A DNA stretch of 4,958 nt from assembly GCF_036507355.1 (NCBI RefSeq), contig NZ_AP027883.1. One strand, written 5' to 3'. The notes beneath the pieces were generated by a model. It ran no database searches, was not told the DNA's origin, and saw only the letters and a list, made by a program, of their open reading frames with translations. The stretch comes from Escherichia coli (GTDB lineage: Bacteria > Pseudomonadota > Gammaproteobacteria > Enterobacterales > Enterobacteriaceae). A program made the position numbers and the translations under genes. This document shows, piece by piece, positions 1,285 through 4,958 of this stretch (positions are counted from its first letter, which is position 1; every line of letters starts with the position of its first letter).

Positions 1285-2275
1285 GTTGCTTAGGTGTCTC
1301 GCAGTAATTTCAGTGATTTTGATACATATGACCATGGGGCATTTTTACGATGCCTTGCTCATGCATGAAAATAAATTGTCATGGATTGTTAGTAATCTTT
1401 ACTACTCGTTAACTAGGTTTTGCGTCCCTATTTTTTTTATTATATCAGCTTATTTGGTTTTTAATAATAAATCCAATAAGAAATGGCATGAAAGATTAGT
1501 AAGACTTGGCTTGCCATTCGTCGCATGGTCGGCTATTTATTATGTGTACGGAGGAGGGCGCGATGCCTCGGAATTCCTAAAAAAAATACTAACAGAAAAC
1601 ACATCATTTCATCTTTGGTTTTTTCCTCCTTTTATAGGTTACACTCTTCTTCTTCCTGCGATCAAAAGTTTATTCATCAGTGAGAATAAAGATAAATTCA
1701 AATATATTTTCGTTATCATTTTTTTATCGTCCATCTTCACCCCTTCATTAATAATGCTGCTAAATTATTTTATTGGTGGCTATTCGTTTATCTATGGGAT
1801 AAGTAATTTTTGTTTAACGCTACCACCTTTGTTAGTATATGGTTTCGCATTTTCTTATTTTTACAAAAAAGTTAACGTGGTGAGTTGGTTTGTGGGGTAC
1901 TTAGTTATAATAATACTCAATATGATGATTAATATCATTATATCTAATAAGCTTGGCACACCTAATGAATGGTTTTATGGCTATACATCAGTTCTGGTTT
2001 TTATTTCTTCTTTTGTTTTATTCAACGTAGTCATGTCAATGAATCTTTCATTTCTTCCAGAAATGGCTGGTAAGGTTGTTTTGATTGTAGGACAGTGCTC
2101 ACTTGGAATATATTTATCTCATTGGTTGGTGTTTTTAATTTTGAGTAAGCATGGTTTATTGTTTTCTGGTAGAGCCATTGTTGATCCAATACTAAATACA
2201 GTAATAGTCTTTTGTGCTTCTATCGCTTTTACATTAGTAGTTCGAATTATTAAACCATTGCGCTATATCTTGTAG
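1256..2275 (+). CDS. Integral-membrane acyltransferase family 3 protein (AT3 / OafA-Oac-like O-acetyltransferase), substrate unknown
   Basis: 339-aa ORF, very AT-rich, hydrophobic throughout (multiple predicted transmembrane segments). N-terminal LLRCLAVISVILIH fits the AT3 first-helix signature R-x2-A-x3-V-x3-H, and FFIISAYLVF resembles the second conserved AT3 motif. ATG at 1256 is preceded by AAGG (1243-1246). The start overlaps the last 29 nt of rep. Stop TAG at 2273-2275. Confidence 0.8.
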   Translation: MSNQKSLNIELLRCLAVISVILIHMTMGHFYDALLMHENKLSWIVSNLYYSLTRFCVPIFFIISAYLVFNNKSNKKWHERLVRLGLPFVAWSAIYYVYGGGRDASEFLKKILTENTSFHLWFFPPFIGYTLLLPAIKSLFISENKDKFKYIFVIIFLSSIFTPSLIMLLNYFIGGYSFIYGISNFCLTLPPLLVYGFAFSYFYKKVNVVSWFVGYLVIIILNMMINIIISNKLGTPNEWFYGYTSVLVFISSFVLFNVVMSMNLSFLPEMAGKVVLIVGQCSLGIYLSHWLVFLILSKHGLLFSGRAIVDPILNTVIVFCASIAFTLVVRIIKPLRYIL

Positions 2276-2284
2276 CTCAATGGT

Positions 2285-2323
2285 TGTGAGACCAAAAACA
2301 AGCCTATATCAGATAACAGCCCT
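2285..2323. other. Probable ColE2-type replication origin (Rep binding and primer synthesis site)
   Basis: tgaGACCAaaaacAAGCCTaTATCAGATAACAGCcc closely resembles the ColE2-P9 minimal origin as I recall it (TGAGACCAGATAAGCCTTATCAGATAACAGCGCCC). In ColE2 plasmids the origin lies just downstream of rep; here it follows the cargo gene instead. Confidence 0.5.
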
Positions 2324-2346
2324 CTTTAGCAGAGGGCTGTTTTTTT
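2317..2346 (+). terminator. Rho-independent terminator closing the rep-acyltransferase transcription unit
   Basis: Perfect 9-bp stem CAGCCCTCT (2317-2325) / AGAGGGCTG (2331-2339) with 5-nt loop TTAGC, followed by a T7 run (2340-2346). Overlaps the 3' end of the origin-like sequence. Confidence 0.6.
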
Positions 2347-2379
2347 GCAGCCAGCACAGAACCTGACATACTGCACTAC

Positions 2380-2400
2380 TCTTTAAGCCAGTACACACAG
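2380..2400 (-). other. ColE1-like oriT nick-site core (bom-type)
   Basis: The - strand reads ...GTGTGTACTGGCTTAAAGAG..., containing TACTGGCTTAA, which is identical to the nick core of the ColE1/pBR322 bom region (gtaTACTGG/CTTAActatg). It lies about 125 bp upstream of mbeC; a short inverted repeat CGTC...GACG (2401-2414) is adjacent. Confidence 0.5.
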
Positions 2401-2468
2401 CGTCCCCTCTGACGAGGTGCCACCGTGACTGGTTCAGGGGGCTCGCCGCCCCCCGAAACCCCCGGCAT

Positions 2469-2510
2469 CCACTGCGAAAAATTCTCACAGTGGTGCGAAT
2501 TTTTTCTCAG
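2469..2510 (+). promoter_or_regulatory. Putative mob operon promoter/operator with repeated TGCGAA-N3/4-TTCTCA elements
   Basis: Direct repeat TGCGAAaaaTTCTCAcag (2473-2490) and TGCGAAttttTTCTCAg (2494-2510), each containing a GAA-W-TTC near-palindrome, plus inverted repeat CCACTG (2469-2474) / CAGTGG (2488-2493). Sits immediately upstream of mbeC; a ribbon-helix-helix MobC-type protein would be a natural binder. No clear sigma70 hexamers assigned. Confidence 0.3.
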
Positions 2511-2518
2511 CGGAGCCT

Positions 2519-2845
2519 ATGGAAAAGCGAACGAAAGAGATAAAAATCCGGCTTACCGAAACCGAGCATCAGCGACTGCTTGATCGCTGCGACCGGACTC
2601 ACCTTGCGGAGTGGCTTCGTCAGCTCGGTCTGGGTGAACATACCTCCCGCAAGCGCCGTGTGCCTGAGGTGGCGCCCGAACTGCTGCGGCAGGTCAGCGG
2701 TATTGGCAATAACCTGAACCAGATTGCCCGCCGCCTGAACCAGGCTGATTCCCTGACGCCTTCTGAACGTGTCTCGCTGCTCGTCGTACTGACCAGCCTT
2801 GATCGGCAGCTTGGCGACCTGCTGGAGCAGAACCGTGATCGTTAA
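2519..2845 (+). CDS. mbeC: Mobilisation accessory protein MbeC/MobC (relaxosome DNA-binding protein)
   Basis: 108-aa ORF. TETEHQRLLDRCD, the LLRQVSGIGNNLNQIARRLN block and the overall length fit the ColE1 MbeC / MobC family as I recall it. GGAG at 2512-2515. Stop TAA (2843-2845) overlaps the relaxase GTG start. Confidence 0.8.
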   Translation: MEKRTKEIKIRLTETEHQRLLDRCDRTHLAEWLRQLGLGEHTSRKRRVPEVAPELLRQVSGIGNNLNQIARRLNQADSLTPSERVSLLVVLTSLDRQLGDLLEQNRDR

Positions 2846-4403
2846 AATTCACTCACGAGGTGCGGGTTCCGGCAGCGGGCCGGTAGATTACCTGTTGGGT
2901 AAAGACCGGCAGCGTGAACAGGCCTGCGTACTGCGTGGCAATCCTGAACATGTGCGTGAGCTGATCGACGGCTGCAACTTTGCCCGCGCCTACACTTCCG
3001 GCGTGCTTTCATTCCAGGAACCTGACATTGCAGACGCCGAGAAATCGCGCCTGATGGACGAATGGGAGCACACGCTGCTGACCGGACTCGACCGCGACCA
3101 GTACGCCTGCCTGTGGGTAGAGCATCGCGACAAGGGACGGCTTGAGCTGAATTTTGTCATCCCGAACATCGAATTGCAGAGTGGAAAACGCCTGCAACCC
3201 TACTTTGACCGCGCCGACCGTCCCCGCGTCAACGCCTGGCAGACCCTGACCAACGACCGGCTGGGGCTGCGCGACCCGAATGACCCGACCTACCGCCGTC
3301 CGCTGACGCAGGCCAGCGATCTGCCCCGCGACAAACAGCAGGCGGCAGAGAAAATCACCGCCGGCCTGATGAACCTGATGCAGCAGGGCGTGATCCGCAG
3401 CCGGCAGGACGTGGTGACGCAGCTGGAAAGCTACGGCCTGACCGTAGCGCGGGAAACGAAAAGCAGCATCAGCATTGCCGATCCGGACGGCGGCCGAAAT
3501 ATCCGGCTGAAAGGAATGATTTATGAGCGAGATTTTAAATTTGGCGAAGGGCTTCGAGGAGAAATCGAAGCAGCAGGCGCAGGATACCGAGCAGAGCGTG
3601 AAGCGCGAGTTCGCGAGGCTGGAGACGTCTATCAGCGCGGAACTGCAATCAAGCTCGCAGAGCATCAGCAACGCTATCCGCGAGCAGAACGGCAGGCTGA
3701 CGGGCATGATCAGAACCTCCGTTTCAGCGGCGATGGCGTGGGTATTCCTCTGCTTCGCCCTGCTGATCGGCATCATGGGGGGGATAATCTGGTTTCAGGG
3801 CACGATCATCACCTCGCGCCTGAGCGAAATGGACAGCTACAGCCAGCAGCTGGCGAACCTGAAAGCGAAAAGCGGCGCGGGCGTGGCGATCTACAGCGAC
3901 GACAAGCACCGGAACACCTACATGGTGGTGCTGCCGAAGCAGGCGCACGGCGTGGAAACCTATACATCGACGACCGACAACACCGTAGTGAAATACACGG
4001 CGAAATAACCCCGTCAGAGCGCCCTGAAACGACACAGCGCGTTTTTAACACCGAGGATGACCAAAACCATGACCGAGATGGAAAAACAGCTTCTGAGCGC
4101 CTTAGAGAGCTTACAGACAAGCTACGAGCAACAGCAGCAGGCGTGGCAGGACAGCTACAGCAGCTTGCAGCACATGTTCGAGGCTACCTCACAGGCGCTG
4201 ACGCACAGCGACCGGGTGTGTCAGCACTTGAGCAGTCAGGTAGAGAGCTTGCGCGCGCAGGTCGAGAGCTTGAGCAGGAACGTCAGCCGCTTGATGCGTT
4301 GATCAGGCAGCACGACCGCGCCTACGCCGAGAAGCTGCGTGAGCAGCAGCCAGAGCCGGAGCCGCAGAAAAAAACGACCCGCTACTATGGCCCCTCGATG
4401 TGA
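2835..4403 (+). CDS. mbeA: MOB-HEN (ColE1 MbeA-type) conjugative relaxase; start placed at GTG 2835 rather than the ATG at 2799 in the ORF track
   Basis: From GTG 2835 the protein starts MIVKIHSRGAGSGSGPVDYLL, putting the catalytic Tyr at residue 19 and the HEN motif at H97/E104/N106 (LWVEHRDKGRLELNFVIPN), the same numbering as ColE1 MbeA. GTG 2835 is in frame with ATG 2799 and overlaps the mbeC stop (GTGATCGTTAA). 522 aa; the C-terminal half is low-complexity and charged. Confidence 0.85.
   Translation: MIVKIHSRGAGSGSGPVDYLLGKDRQREQACVLRGNPEHVRELIDGCNFARAYTSGVLSFQEPDIADAEKSRLMDEWEHTLLTGLDRDQYACLWVEHRDKGRLELNFVIPNIELQSGKRLQPYFDRADRPRVNAWQTLTNDRLGLRDPNDPTYRRPLTQASDLPRDKQQAAEKITAGLMNLMQQGVIRSRQDVVTQLESYGLTVARETKSSISIADPDGGRNIRLKGMIYERDFKFGEGLRGEIEAAGAGYRAEREARVREAGDVYQRGTAIKLAEHQQRYPRAERQADGHDQNLRFSGDGVGIPLLRPADRHHGGDNLVSGHDHHLAPERNGQLQPAAGEPESEKRRGRGDLQRRQAPEHLHGGAAEAGARRGNLYIDDRQHRSEIHGEITPSERPETTQRVFNTEDDQNHDRDGKTASERLRELTDKLRATAAGVAGQLQQLAAHVRGYLTGADAQRPGVSALEQSGRELARAGRELEQERQPLDALIRQHDRAYAEKLREQQPEPEPQKKTTRYYGPSM
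3523..4008 (+). CDS. mbeB: MbeB-like mobilisation protein, nested in the +1 frame inside mbeA
   Basis: 161-aa ORF with AAGGA (3511-3515) 7 nt before the ATG; a charged N-terminal region followed by one hydrophobic segment (AAMAWVFLCFALLIGIMGGIIWF). Position and architecture match ColE1 mbeB; call is positional/architectural rather than from verified sequence identity. Confidence 0.6.
   Translation: MSEILNLAKGFEEKSKQQAQDTEQSVKREFARLETSISAELQSSSQSISNAIREQNGRLTGMIRTSVSAAMAWVFLCFALLIGIMGGIIWFQGTIITSRLSEMDSYSQQLANLKAKSGAGVAIYSDDKHRNTYMVVLPKQAHGVETYTSTTDNTVVKYTAK
4069..4302 (+). CDS. mbeD: MbeD-like mobilisation protein, nested in the +1 frame inside the 3' part of mbeA
   Basis: ORF track starts at ATG 4057 (no spacing after GAGG). 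The in-frame ATG 4069 (MTEMEKQLLSALESLQ...) has GAGGA 11 nt upstream and better fits the ColE1 MbeD start as I recall it. Coiled-coil-like repeats (QVESLRAQVESLSRNV). Same frame as mbeB. Confidence 0.55.
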   Translation: MTEMEKQLLSALESLQTSYEQQQQAWQDSYSSLQHMFEATSQALTHSDRVCQHLSSQVESLRAQVESLSRNVSRLMR

Positions 4404-4404
4404 C

Positions 4405-4460
4405 CGCTTTTCCGAAATCAGAATTAAGTGTACTATGTACTCCGTTAAAAACAGGAGACA
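4405..4460 (+). promoter_or_regulatory. Putative higBA promoter/operator region
   Basis: 60-bp gap between the mbeA stop and the higB start contains TTAAGTGTACTATGTACTCCGTTAA, with a GTAC-TAT-GTAC dyad (4427-4440) overlapping a possible -10 (TACTAT 4431-4436), then a strong AGGAG (4453-4457) 6 nt before the GTG. Toxin-antitoxin operators are typically palindromes overlapping the promoter. Confidence 0.3.
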
Positions 4461-4463
4461 GCC

Positions 4464-4796
4464 GTGAGTCACGCGATTGAGTTTATCGAGACCCCGATGT
4501 TTACCCGTCAGATAAAACAGATCGCCACGGATGAAGAACTCAGGGAGCTGCAAAAGACGCTGATTGAGTCGCCGGACAAAGGCGATCTCATTCAGAAAAC
4601 CGGCGGGCTGCGCAAAATCAGGATGGCGACGGGCAACCAGGGAAAAAGCGGCAGCGTGAGGGTGATTTACTTTCTGGCCACCGCCGAGGTGATCTATCTG
4701 GTGATGGCCTACCCGAAAAGCACCAAAGACAGCCTGACGGACGCGGAAAAAGCCGCGCTGAAGACGCTGACCCAACAACTGAAAGACGAGGTGTGA
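4464..4796 (+). CDS. higB: HigB2-like (RelE/ParE superfamily) type II toxin, GTG start
   Basis: 110-aa ORF. TGGLRKIRMATGNQGKSGSVRVIYF and the downstream AEVIYLVMAYPKSTKDSLTD match the HigB-2 toxin family (GTGGLRKIR...GKRGGSRIIYYF...YLL..Y.K pattern) as recalled from Vibrio HigB-2. Toxin-first gene order is typical of hig modules. Stop TGA 4794-4796, 1 nt before the antitoxin ATG. Confidence 0.8.
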   Translation: MSHAIEFIETPMFTRQIKQIATDEELRELQKTLIESPDKGDLIQKTGGLRKIRMATGNQGKSGSVRVIYFLATAEVIYLVMAYPKSTKDSLTDAEKAALKTLTQQLKDEV

Positions 4797-4797
4797 C

Positions 4798-4958
4798 ATG
4801 AGTTTTTTTGACGAGCTGAAAGCATCGCTGGAAGAAGCCGTTGAAATCAAAAACGGCGTCAGAGAGCCTGCCCGCGTCACCCGTTACGAGCTGGCAGACG
4901 TGAAAGCCATCAGGGCACAGCTGAACGTATCTCAGAGCGAGATGGCGAAAGTGCTGGG
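4798..4958 (+). CDS. higA: 5' part of the HigA2-like XRE-family HTH antitoxin gene (runs off the window end and continues at nt 1)
   Basis: MSFFDELKASLEEAVEIKNGVREPARVTRYELADVKAIRAQLNVSQSEMAKVLG...; LNVSQSEMAKVLG is the first helix of an XRE HTH. 53 complete codons plus GG; with nt 1 (A) this makes GGA (Gly) and continues in frame into the 1-124 fragment. Confidence 0.8.
   Translation, partial: MSFFDELKASLEEAVEIKNGVREPARVTRYELADVKAIRAQLNVSQSEMAKVL

Follow-up and report, generated by a model that had tools for sequence, protein, structure and literature searches.

Boyd, Archer and Sherratt reportedly described the mobilization region of ColE1 in 1989 as the genes mbeA, mbeB, mbeC and mbeD in a nested layout, and Boyd et al. 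are said to have found in the same year that the products of mbeA to mbeD are expressed. Mobilization (mob) modules of the ColE1 superfamily, or MOB-HEN type, were reportedly treated by Francia et al. in 2004. In published mob regions, mobB and mobD are nested in mobA (PMC5935869, PMC9282650). For ColE1, the part of PMC2831885 that cites Yamada 1995 has mbeD mediate entry exclusion. In R1162, the small protein MobB is likewise encoded by a gene that overlaps mobA in another frame. According to the passages on this protein in PMC4655240 (citing Meyer 2011) and PMC5572225, MobB has a cytoplasmic N-terminal part and a membrane anchor, interacts with MobA and raises the transfer frequency.

The window, which is the whole stretch of 4,958 nucleotides of Escherichia coli DNA analysed here, carries an arrangement of this kind. 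An earlier, sequence-only reading had placed an mbeB-like ORF (3523-4008) and an mbeD-like ORF (4069-4302) entirely within mbeA, in its +1 frame, and the coordinates confirm this. The same reading had called the nested layout a known feature of ColE1-type mob regions; ColE1 itself (L009) is identical in layout, and the literature agrees (PMC5935869, PMC9282650, PMC2831885). The homology sample comprised family models, 3221 plasmid matches and 24 fetched loci. Judged from sequence, the stretch 3523-4302 very probably does code in two frames, as part of an mbeC-mbeA mobilization operon of the ColE1 superfamily (MOB-HEN type) with mbeB and mbeD nested in mbeA. Such nesting was already familiar from the characterization of the ColE1 mob region, and the same genes are annotated in near-identical plasmids; as biology, little is added here, and the mob region shows nothing new.

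The relaxase gene and its surroundings

The relaxase frame is open from 2799 to 4403 on the + strand. The match to the NCBIfam MbeA model sets in at residue 13 of this long ORF, the GTG codon at 2835, and mbeA is accordingly assigned to 2835-4403 and encodes 522 residues. The match covers model positions 1-490 of 497, and its score of 473.9 bits lies below the 500-bit cut-off of NF047848, the ColE1-type MbeA model. On sequence grounds, with 42% identity to ColE1 MbeA, the protein counts as a diverged relative and falls outside a strict definition of the ColE1-type MbeA. It carries the marks of the MOB-HEN type, namely the catalytic tyrosine Y19 (PVDY19LLG) and the HEN motif H97RDKGRLE104LN106. 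Residues Y19, H97, E104 and N106 are invariant in an alignment of 18 MbeA sequences, and the Pfam Relaxase family is matched with 28.3 bits (cut-off 24.6).

In the AF2 model of MbeA, residues 171-280 have a pLDDT of 73-91 (10-residue means), the values falling to 24-37 across 285-417 and lying at ~50 in the helices 419-503. The predicted layout is a folded domain (residues 1-284), followed by a disordered linker (285-417) and a helical region (419-503), and a conserved R-x-Y-x-G-P-S-(L/M) motif follows the helices at the C-terminal end. The sequence-only reading had described the whole C-terminal half as low in complexity, charged and under reduced constraint. This description fits only residues ~285-417, where the pLDDT is lowest, where residues 283-391 are hypervariable (mean pairwise identity ~0.24), and where the MbeA-frame omega over the nucleotides for residues 283-391, a rough value from a simple multiplicative counting model of 6-7 related sequences without a tree, is ~1.8 (95% interval 1.1-3.0). 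It does not fit residues 230-284, the first 55 to be overlapped, which lie within the confidently folded, conserved N-terminal domain. Nor does it fit the mbeD-overlapped residues ~412-490, which are helical and moderately conserved (mean identity 0.43 over 412-489, with D413 and R424 invariant). The compositional shift in the overlapped part of MbeA is modest, with an entropy of 3.83 vs 4.10 bits and a charged fraction of 0.33 vs 0.28. It arises because 84% of the mbeA codons in the overlap have G or C at position 1, a proportion imposed by the GC3 of the nested genes. A sequence search of solved structures with MbeA, MbeB and MbeD gave no meaningful match.

The gene directly upstream, mbeC (also mobC; 2519-2845, + strand), encodes a predicted relaxosome accessory protein of 108 residues, and its 3' end at 2845 overlaps the start of mbeA by 11 nt. 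An RHH-type accessory gene in this position is characteristic of the module. The product matches the Pfam families NikA-like (E=1.4e-11) and MobC (E=6.6e-10), and its relatives carry the MobC annotation. Upstream of mbeC lies an oriT-like block at 2383-2470 (no strand assigned), which reads TAAGCCAGTACACACAGCG ... GTGACTGGTTCAGGGGGC..GCCCCCCGAAACCCC and is also conserved in the ColE1-like and Aeromonas mob regions L004, L006 and L007. We take this block to resemble the bom sequence of pBR322/ColE1, and this putative oriT is presumably the cis site for the action of the mob proteins. No sigma-70-like promoter was found in a scan of 2200-4958, so that no internal promoter can be proposed for mbeB or mbeD.

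The mob module is of the ColE1 type, and the replicon is ColE2-like. A ColE1-family replicon is primed by RNAII/RNAI, usually with rop, whereas here a Rep protein is encoded at 316-1284 (Pfam Replicase, E=2.8e-46, and PriCT_1). Relatives of the plasmid are typed Col(Ye4449). Nucleotide identity across the mob region is 97-98% to Salmonella pSC2016091-5k (NZ_CP101377) and to p58 of ETEC H10407 (NC_017723). The cargo adjoining rep varies among the three, being an acyltransferase-3 gene here, an AIPR protein gene in NZ_CP101377 and a dCTP deaminase gene in p58.

The nested genes and their starts

Because both (3523-2835) mod 3 and (4069-2835) mod 3 equal 1, the two nested ORFs share the +1 frame of mbeA. 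The first, mbeB (3523-4008, + strand), starts with an ATG that falls in the codons for MbeA Tyr230-Glu231, at a base where Tyr codons allow no variation, and encodes 161 residues that match the full 52-position profile of Pfam PF04837, MbeB_N (E=8.3e-18); an MbeB_N-domain gene lying out of frame inside a relaxase gene is a feature of the ColE1 superfamily. The protein can be divided into an N-terminal MbeB_N helix (residues 1-52), a transmembrane helix (residues 71-89, Kyte-Doolittle mean 2.47) and a small C-terminal beta domain. Its AF2 model, of moderate confidence (pLDDT 70.5, pTM 0.27), has a long helix and a weak beta domain.

The second, mbeD (4069-4302, + strand), follows downstream of mbeB within the relaxase gene, again as in the ColE1 superfamily. 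Its 77-residue product is a heptad-leucine coiled-coil protein that matches NCBIfam NF033829 with 105.2 bits (cut-off 60) and Pfam PF04899, MbeD_MobD (E=2.3e-23). These matches to the MbeB and MbeD families supply the homologues that the earlier check asked for, and identical mbeB and mbeD annotation is found in plasmids 95-98% identical to this one and in ColE1. The two genes are separated by a clade-specific spacer of 60 nt (4009-4068, + strand), which codes only for MbeA residues 392-411 and in which substitutions show no clear frame bias.

Each nested ORF had been credited with a start context of its own, and both contexts are found. For mbeB, the predicted Shine-Dalgarno sequence AAAGGA (3511-3516, + strand) stands 6 nt before the ATG at 3523. 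It is invariant in 9/9 clade members and sits within the codons for the invariant MbeA residues L225-K226-G227. For mbeD, the putative Shine-Dalgarno sequence GAGGA (4053-4057, + strand) stands 11 nt before the ATG at 4069, which is a rather long spacing. Across the clade it reads (G/A/C)AGG(A/G), the AGG core being conserved in the 9 members. The ATG itself falls inside the MbeA codons H412-D413.

It is improbable that mbeD begins at ATG 4078 or ATG 4057 instead. The equivalent of 4078 is the PGAP start in L001, L017 and L018, but this codon is ACC in L021. The in-frame ORF listing extends to its first ATG (4057-4302, 81 aa, + strand), immediately 5' of which stands GAGG, but position 4057 holds GAC, GGT or another non-start codon in 6/9 clade members. 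ATG 4069, on the other hand, is kept in all nine, and it is there that the NCBIfam MbeD model and 19/19 aligned MbeD proteins begin, with an M-T-E motif. The start at 4069, as placed in the sequence-only reading, is very probably correct.

Signatures of coding in the two frames

The mbeA ORF is intact in 20/20 loci in which it can be traced to its stop, with MbeA identity down to 42%. Every one of them has two successive +1 ORFs, the first of 120-197 aa with its start at precisely mbeA nt 689, the second of 70-95 aa. In the same loci, the +2 frame holds only short ORFs except for one of 98 aa in L008, and the antisense ORFs are 52-255 aa long.

ORF length was dropped as evidence of coding, as +1 ORFs of 161 aa or more were present in 26% of 5000 synonymous-codon shuffles of mbeA. 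Two ORFs as long as those observed (161 aa or more and 77 aa or more) occurred together in 0.4% of these shuffles. An antisense ORF of 255 aa in the window (3009-3776, - strand) was also considered and rejected; its shuffle P is 0.002, yet it is unconserved in length among the relatives and has no family match. The signal beyond chance is the conservation together with the codon-phase signature, not the length of the ORFs.

The ease with which shuffling yields a long +1 ORF would suit the explanation that the nested ORFs do not code and simply result from the G+C-rich composition of the relaxase gene, their "homologues" being no more than mbeA conservation seen in another frame. The antisense ORFs of 103-255 aa without a family match in the same region would suit it as well, and the Pfam MbeB and MbeD families were themselves built from nested ORFs. 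This explanation is already contradicted by the data, and its probability is minute. At the precise borders of the ORFs, both the substitutions and the GC3 change over to the nested frame, and beyond the ORFs they change back. In the 868-nt alignment of 20 loci, which has zero gaps, the third-position bias of mbeA vanishes exactly at the mbeB ATG. Counted as minimum substitutions at mbeA codon positions 1/2/3, the N-terminal region has 75/39/208, the mbeB overlap 96/62/59 (p=1e-16 vs the N-terminal region), the mbeD overlap 35/21/28 (p=1e-6) and the tail after mbeD 19/21/39. The third-position bias of mbeA is lost inside the overlaps, where it passes to the third position of the nested genes, and is regained in the tail. 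pMUT2 (L023), whose mbeB overlap aligns poorly at only 55% nucleotide identity, was excluded from the pooled counts; its 161-aa +1 ORF is intact. The loss of bias is repeated in independent locus pairs, and the GC-by-phase switch is present in 14/14 loci tested, ColE1 included.

The rough omega values from the counting model described above are, for the N-terminal region, 0.12 in mbeA and 0.92 in the +1 control frame; for the mbeB overlap, 1.36 (0.89-2.26) in mbeA and 0.52 (0.35-0.77) in mbeB; for the mbeD overlap, where the intervals are wide, 0.95 in mbeA and 0.41 (0.17-0.84) in mbeD; and for the tail (4303-4403), 0.27 in mbeA. The +1 frame therefore moves from 0.92 outside the overlaps to 0.41-0.52 inside. 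Changes that create +1 stops are as frequent as expected upstream of the overlaps (18 observed vs ~19), but are depleted inside them (1 vs ~7). The start position of mbeB is invariant in the 20 loci and its Shine-Dalgarno sequence in the 9 clade members, whereas the antisense ORFs are unconserved.

The mbeA-frame omega of ~1-1.8 in the overlaps could also mean that the overlap exists in name only, with a functional relaxase of ~285 residues, 240 further mbeA codons of unselected read-through, and real coding there by mbeB and mbeD alone. This is very unlikely, even though the linker is predicted to be disordered and is hypervariable, and even though annotation programs seem to agree with it. 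PGAP calls the relaxase of the 97%-identical ETEC p58 a 318-nt pseudogene "missing C-terminus", and Prokka leaves the relaxase out of OW849314 entirely. However, the MbeA protein alignment contains many indels, and yet in none of the 20 loci is the mbeA frame interrupted over these ~240 codons. The conservation of residues 412-489, with D413 and R424, and of the C-terminal R-x-Y-x-G-P-S-(L/M) motif argues against unselected read-through, as does the purifying selection on the mbeA frame, with its third-position bias, in the non-overlapped tail. ColE1 MbeA, moreover, is reportedly a full-length protein of ~58 kDa, as Boyd in 1989 and Varsaki in 2003 are said to have found. Finally, relaxase "pseudogenes" of this kind, present in 487 plasmids, were considered erroneous in a published survey and discarded (bioRxiv 10.1101/2023.11.08.566193). 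The claim of a real double-coding stretch is upheld by these results, the nested frames being under purifying selection and mbeA being open with conserved segments.

It is because of the nesting that annotation pipelines drop or pseudogenize the relaxase. The p58 relaxase that PGAP records as truncated is intact, and there are PLSDB gene tables without the relaxase. Such misannotation can bias estimates of plasmid mobility.

Proposed roles and relation to known systems

By combining these observations, it is possible to propose how the dual-coding stretch would be used. Ribosomes starting at GTG 2835 would read frame 0 throughout and produce the 522-residue MbeA. Separate ribosomes would start at the internal Shine-Dalgarno/ATG sites and read the +1 frame, producing MbeB (161 aa) and MbeD (77 aa). 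MbeB would be a single-pass membrane protein with its N-terminal helix in the cytoplasm, and MbeD a coiled coil. MbeC and MbeA may assemble as the relaxosome on the upstream oriT, which they would then nick. The membrane-anchored MobB of R1162/RSF1010 suggests, by analogy, a probable role for MbeB in holding or presenting the relaxosome at the membrane or at the coupling protein of a helper conjugative plasmid. MbeD might take part in mobilization and in entry exclusion, the roles reported for it in ColE1.

In the overlaps, the nested genes would be the dominant selective partners, imposing their codon usage (GC3 ~0.83) and accepting mainly changes that are synonymous for themselves. MbeA would use the shared DNA in three ways: for the last 55 residues of its folded domain, which would be constrained in both frames; for a disordered linker of ~130 residues, evolving roughly neutrally; and for the C-terminal helical region overlapped by mbeD. 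As 84% of the linker codons start with G or C, the linker is rich in R, G, A, E and D. There is about an even chance that the long "host" gene is the evolutionary passenger here: across mbeB codons 54-161, the codon usage and synonymous sites of mbeB would then determine both the composition of the linker and its near-neutral or faster evolution (omega ~1.8, a rough value). If so, mbeA/mbeB would offer a clean natural model of how overlapping genes of bacteria can be asymmetrically constrained, and one that is widely sampled, in thousands of plasmids. The locus is in any case a well-sampled example of asymmetric selection, in which the short genes would dominate and the long gene would lay a disordered linker over them.

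RSF1010/R1162 (MOBQ) resembles this locus in having a small accessory gene, mobB, inside the relaxase gene mobA in another frame, but this is an analogy only. The relaxase is of a different family, RSF1010 has no counterpart of MbeD, and the likeness of MbeB to MobB is one of architecture only, that is, an N-terminal cytoplasmic part and a membrane helix.

ColE1 agrees with this locus in gene order, mbeC being followed by an mbeA that contains both mbeB and mbeD, entirely and in its +1 frame. The mbeB start falls at mbeA nt 689 in both, and Y19, H97, E104, N106, the Pfam families and the GC-phase switch in the overlaps are shared. The proteins have diverged, identity to ColE1 being 42% for MbeA, 38% for MbeB residues 1-53, 18% for MbeB residues 54-161 and 36-39% for MbeD. 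The spacer between mbeB and mbeD is 60 nt here vs 0-6 nt in ColE1-type loci, and MbeD has a 7-residue insertion relative to the ColE1-type proteins. In further contrast to ColE1, no mbeE was identified in the window, and a Rep protein takes the place of RNAII/RNAI/Rop. In this last respect, the plasmid resembles the ColE2-like plasmids with a ColE1-superfamily mob module, such as pUB6060 and pHW66 (PMC2831885), with which it shares the Rep-protein replicon, the low-G+C insert adjoining rep, and the order mobC-A(B,D) followed by a two-gene module, which here is RelE/HigB-NadS.

The mob region and its nested genes

The window (4958 bp) covers the greater part of a small, mobilizable enterobacterial plasmid. 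Its closest relatives in the databases are the plasmids pSC2016091-5k of Salmonella (98.4% identity over 2400-4958) and p58 of ETEC H10407 (97.0% over mbeA). The Rep gene (316-1284; Pfam Replicase, E=2.8e-46, and PriCT_1) is directly followed by a low-G+C (0.28-0.37) acyltransferase-3 gene on the plus strand (1256-2275; Pfam E=6.6e-29), which shares the last 29 nt of rep and has a terminator-like hairpin with an 11-bp stem at its 3' side (2315-2341). This gene looks like foreign cargo, situated where related plasmids hold other genes: the same position is occupied by an AIPR protein in NZ_CP101377 and by an anti-phage dCTP deaminase in p58. An oriT-like block (about 2383-2470) and mbeC/mobC (2519-2845) come before a long ORF containing the relaxase (2799-4403). 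As the NCBIfam MbeA alignment begins at residue 13 of this ORF, the GTG at 2835, with GGAG just before it, mbeA (522 aa) is assigned to 2835-4403. Immediately 3' of the mob operon lie a RelE/HigB-family toxin gene (4464-4796, plus strand; Pfam RelE E=6e-10) and, after 4796, a NadS/HigA-type antitoxin gene that is cut off by the end of the window at 4958; the pair is annotated likewise in relatives.

Two plus-strand ORFs, mbeB (3523-4008, 161 aa) and mbeD (4057/4069-4302, 81/77 aa), are nested inside mbeA in the +1 frame, as the sequence-only reading had proposed. The mbeD start that it chose, the ATG at 4069, is conserved, and the M-T-E motif encoded there opens both the family model of MbeD and the 19 MbeD proteins that were aligned. 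Some relatives lack the ATG at 4057 or that at 4078. The separate start contexts that it ascribed to the two genes prove to be conserved start signals set in conserved MbeA residues. The mbeB Shine-Dalgarno sequence AAAGGA is invariant, lies 6 nt 5' of the ATG and coincides with the invariant MbeA residues L225-K226-G227; the ATG itself is contained in the invariant codons Y230-E231 (TAT GAG). A conserved AGG core is positioned 11-12 nt 5' of the mbeD ATG, which is contained in codons H412-D413 (CAT GAC).

Conservation and selection in each reading frame

The length of the ORFs is no better than chance: when the synonymous codons of mbeA were shuffled 5000 times, 26% of the trials had a +1 ORF of 161 aa or more. 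Both nested ORFs together were found in 0.4% of them. The same region also holds antisense ORFs (103-255 aa), which lack conservation as well as a family match. The longest (3009-3776, minus strand, 255 aa), codon-aligned with mbeA, exceeds 99.8% of the shuffles. As it shrinks to 52-68 aa in NZ_CP138813, NZ_CP058201 and pMUT2 and a Pfam search gave no match, it most likely reflects composition rather than a gene.

For comparison, 24 related loci, ColE1 among them, were fetched. In all 20 loci where mbeA could be traced as far as its stop codon (42-99% MbeA identity), a +1 ORF of 120-197 aa begins at precisely 688 nt past the start of mbeA and a second, of 70-95 aa, lies downstream of it; the first 868 nt of mbeA align without gaps in this set. 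At the level of sequence, the comparative evidence that the nested genes exceed chance is decisive.

Substitutions were counted in the closer relatives, whose nucleotide identity is 72-98% across the N-terminal region and both overlaps, as minimum numbers at mbeA codon positions 1/2/3, mbeA position 1 being nested position 3. The counts are 75/39/208 in the non-overlapped N-terminal part, 96/62/59 in the mbeB overlap (p=1e-16 versus the N-terminal region), 35/21/28 in the mbeD overlap (p=1e-6 versus the same region) and 19/21/39 in the tail (4303-4403). The loss of the mbeA third-position bias is seen again when independent pairs of sequences are compared, and several of these pairs shift towards position 1. 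Each change was classed as synonymous or non-synonymous per frame, with all possible single-base changes as the baseline. Changes synonymous in mbeA and non-synonymous in the +1 frame are 3.0-fold enriched 5' of the overlaps and depleted within them (0.69 in mbeB, 0.89 in mbeD); the converse class stands at 0.37 upstream and increases to 1.82 and 2.12, respectively.

Omega, the non-synonymous/synonymous selection estimate per frame, was obtained from a multiplicative model with bootstrap. In the upstream control it is 0.12 for mbeA and 0.92 for the +1 frame, and the method is validated because the latter is near 1. The corresponding values are 1.36 (0.89-2.26) and 0.52 (0.35-0.77) in the mbeB overlap, 0.95 and 0.41 (0.17-0.84) in the mbeD overlap, and 0.27 and 0.76 in the tail; over mbeB codons 54-161 omega for mbeA is 1.76 (1.12-3.04). 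In the wide 20-locus set the counts change from 19/13/49 just upstream to a flat 63/57/62 immediately past the mbeB ATG, and the segment encoding MbeB_N (PF04837) is therefore constrained in both frames. The GC content of mbeA position 3 drops from 0.73 upstream to 0.42 and 0.40 in the two overlaps and reaches 0.82 in the tail; for mbeA position 1, the nested position 3, the overlaps have 0.84 and 0.82. This switch was found in 14 of 14 loci examined, ColE1 included. Inside the overlaps, then, selection and GC content both switch to the nested frames. These patterns show that selection acts on three overlapping reading frames of a single strand, and a conserved start signal belongs to each of the nested genes.

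Three of the fetched loci are decaying variants. Erwinia tracheiphila pETR005-b (1145-2618) has an mbeA frameshift near codon 105, a shortened mobC and intact mbeB and mbeD; in L020 (1801-2163) a stop cuts mbeB to 120 aa and mbeA remains open; in Shigella pSFxv_2 (1-640) all that is left of mbeA is its 3' third, and mbeD is intact. Evidently, loss or retention of the nested genes can be independent of the relaxase.

The overlapped part of the relaxase and the nested proteins

In an AF2 model of MbeA built from an 18-sequence alignment, residues 1-284 form a folded domain with a few short stretches of lower pLDDT. The 10-residue mean pLDDT is 73-91 over 171-280, a range that takes in the helix overlapping MbeB_N (240-280). 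Residues 285-417 are unstructured (pLDDT 24-37), and 419-503 are modeled as helices, with low to moderate confidence (pLDDT about 50). The same division is seen in the mean pairwise amino-acid identities: 0.71 for MbeA 1-229, 0.57 for 230-282, 0.24 for 283-391 and 0.43 for 412-489, alongside 0.50 for MbeB 1-53, 0.30 for MbeB 54-161 and 0.51 for MbeD. The suggestion of a low-complexity, charged C-terminal half under reduced constraint is consequently right for no more than the middle linker. The shift in composition, a modest one (entropy 3.83 versus 4.10 bits), is due to 84% of mbeA codons beginning with G or C.

Judged from the alignments, mbeA is truly coding to its end, because its frame is open in every locus, though the MbeA alignment has many indels, because D413, R424 and a C-terminal R-x-Y-x-G-P-S-(L/M) are conserved, and because the tail is under mbeA-frame selection. 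The motif, at the extreme C-terminus (residues about 514-522, window 4375-4400), is kept in most of the 18 aligned relaxases amid otherwise hypervariable C-terminal regions; it is conceivable that it is a secretion or coupling-protein recognition signal.

MbeB begins with the conserved MbeB_N helix, and its residues 71-89 are strongly hydrophobic (Kyte-Doolittle mean 2.47); the protein is modeled as a long helix to residue 117 and a small beta domain of low confidence. The N-terminus of MbeD, a heptad-leucine coiled coil, reads M-T-E-x-E-x-x-L-L-x-A-L-E and is very conserved in the alignment. A search of solved structures by sequence gave none related to the nested proteins.

The mob genes would be carried by a single operon transcript; a promoter scan of 2200-4958 gave no promoter-like site. 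Ribosomes would initiate internally and independently at the nested genes. MbeC and MbeA would act at the upstream oriT, and MbeB is probably a membrane-anchored accessory that helps pass the relaxosome to the coupling protein of a helper plasmid, by analogy with R1162 MobB, likewise nested in its relaxase gene (PMC4655240; PMC5572225). MbeD would contribute to mobilization and entry exclusion, in line with reports on ColE1 (PMC2831885, citing Yamada 1995).

Annotation of the relaxase and comparison with known systems

The nested genes lead annotation pipelines to treat the relaxase wrongly. In p58 (NC_017723; locus positions 3001-4569) the 522-aa mbeA ORF is intact; in RefSeq/PGAP the relaxase is a 318-nt pseudogene 'missing C-terminus' and MbeD is absent. 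The Prokka-annotated OW849314 (1636-3198) has consecutive locus tags without a relaxase, and PLSDB gene tables leave the relaxase out wherever MbeB and MbeD are listed. Such suspect relaxase pseudogenes have been reported in 487 plasmids (bioRxiv 10.1101/2023.11.08.566193). The GC3 switch is a likely reason why gene finders favour the nested frames. In the clinically important ColKP3-type OXA-232 plasmid NZ_CP033950 (2737-3447) the annotation gives the relaxase alone; as intact mbeB-like (145 aa) and mbeD-like (90 aa) +1 ORFs are at the canonical positions, the nested genes appear to be un-annotated. NZ_CP138813 and NZ_CP058201, 'non-mobilizable' per MOB-suite/PLSDB, each hold mobC, an intact 523-aa mbeA ORF, mbeB and mbeD; relaxase typing has probably missed them as members of this divergent clade.

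The arrangement in the window is the ColE1-superfamily mob layout, as had been recognized from the sequence; that layout was reportedly described by Boyd 1989 and Francia et al. 2004. The nested mbeB/mbeD layout is thus already known, and the reading of nested double coding is upheld with refinements, the observation itself being confirmed. The differences from ColE1 are minor: the mbeB-mbeD spacer is 60 nt versus 0-6 nt in ColE1-type loci, MbeD carries a 7-residue insertion, and MbeA scores just below the NCBIfam cut-off. The replicon is ColE2-like in its Rep protein, as in pUB6060 and pHW66, which have a low-G+C insert adjoining rep and a ColE1-type mobABCD module (PMC2831885).
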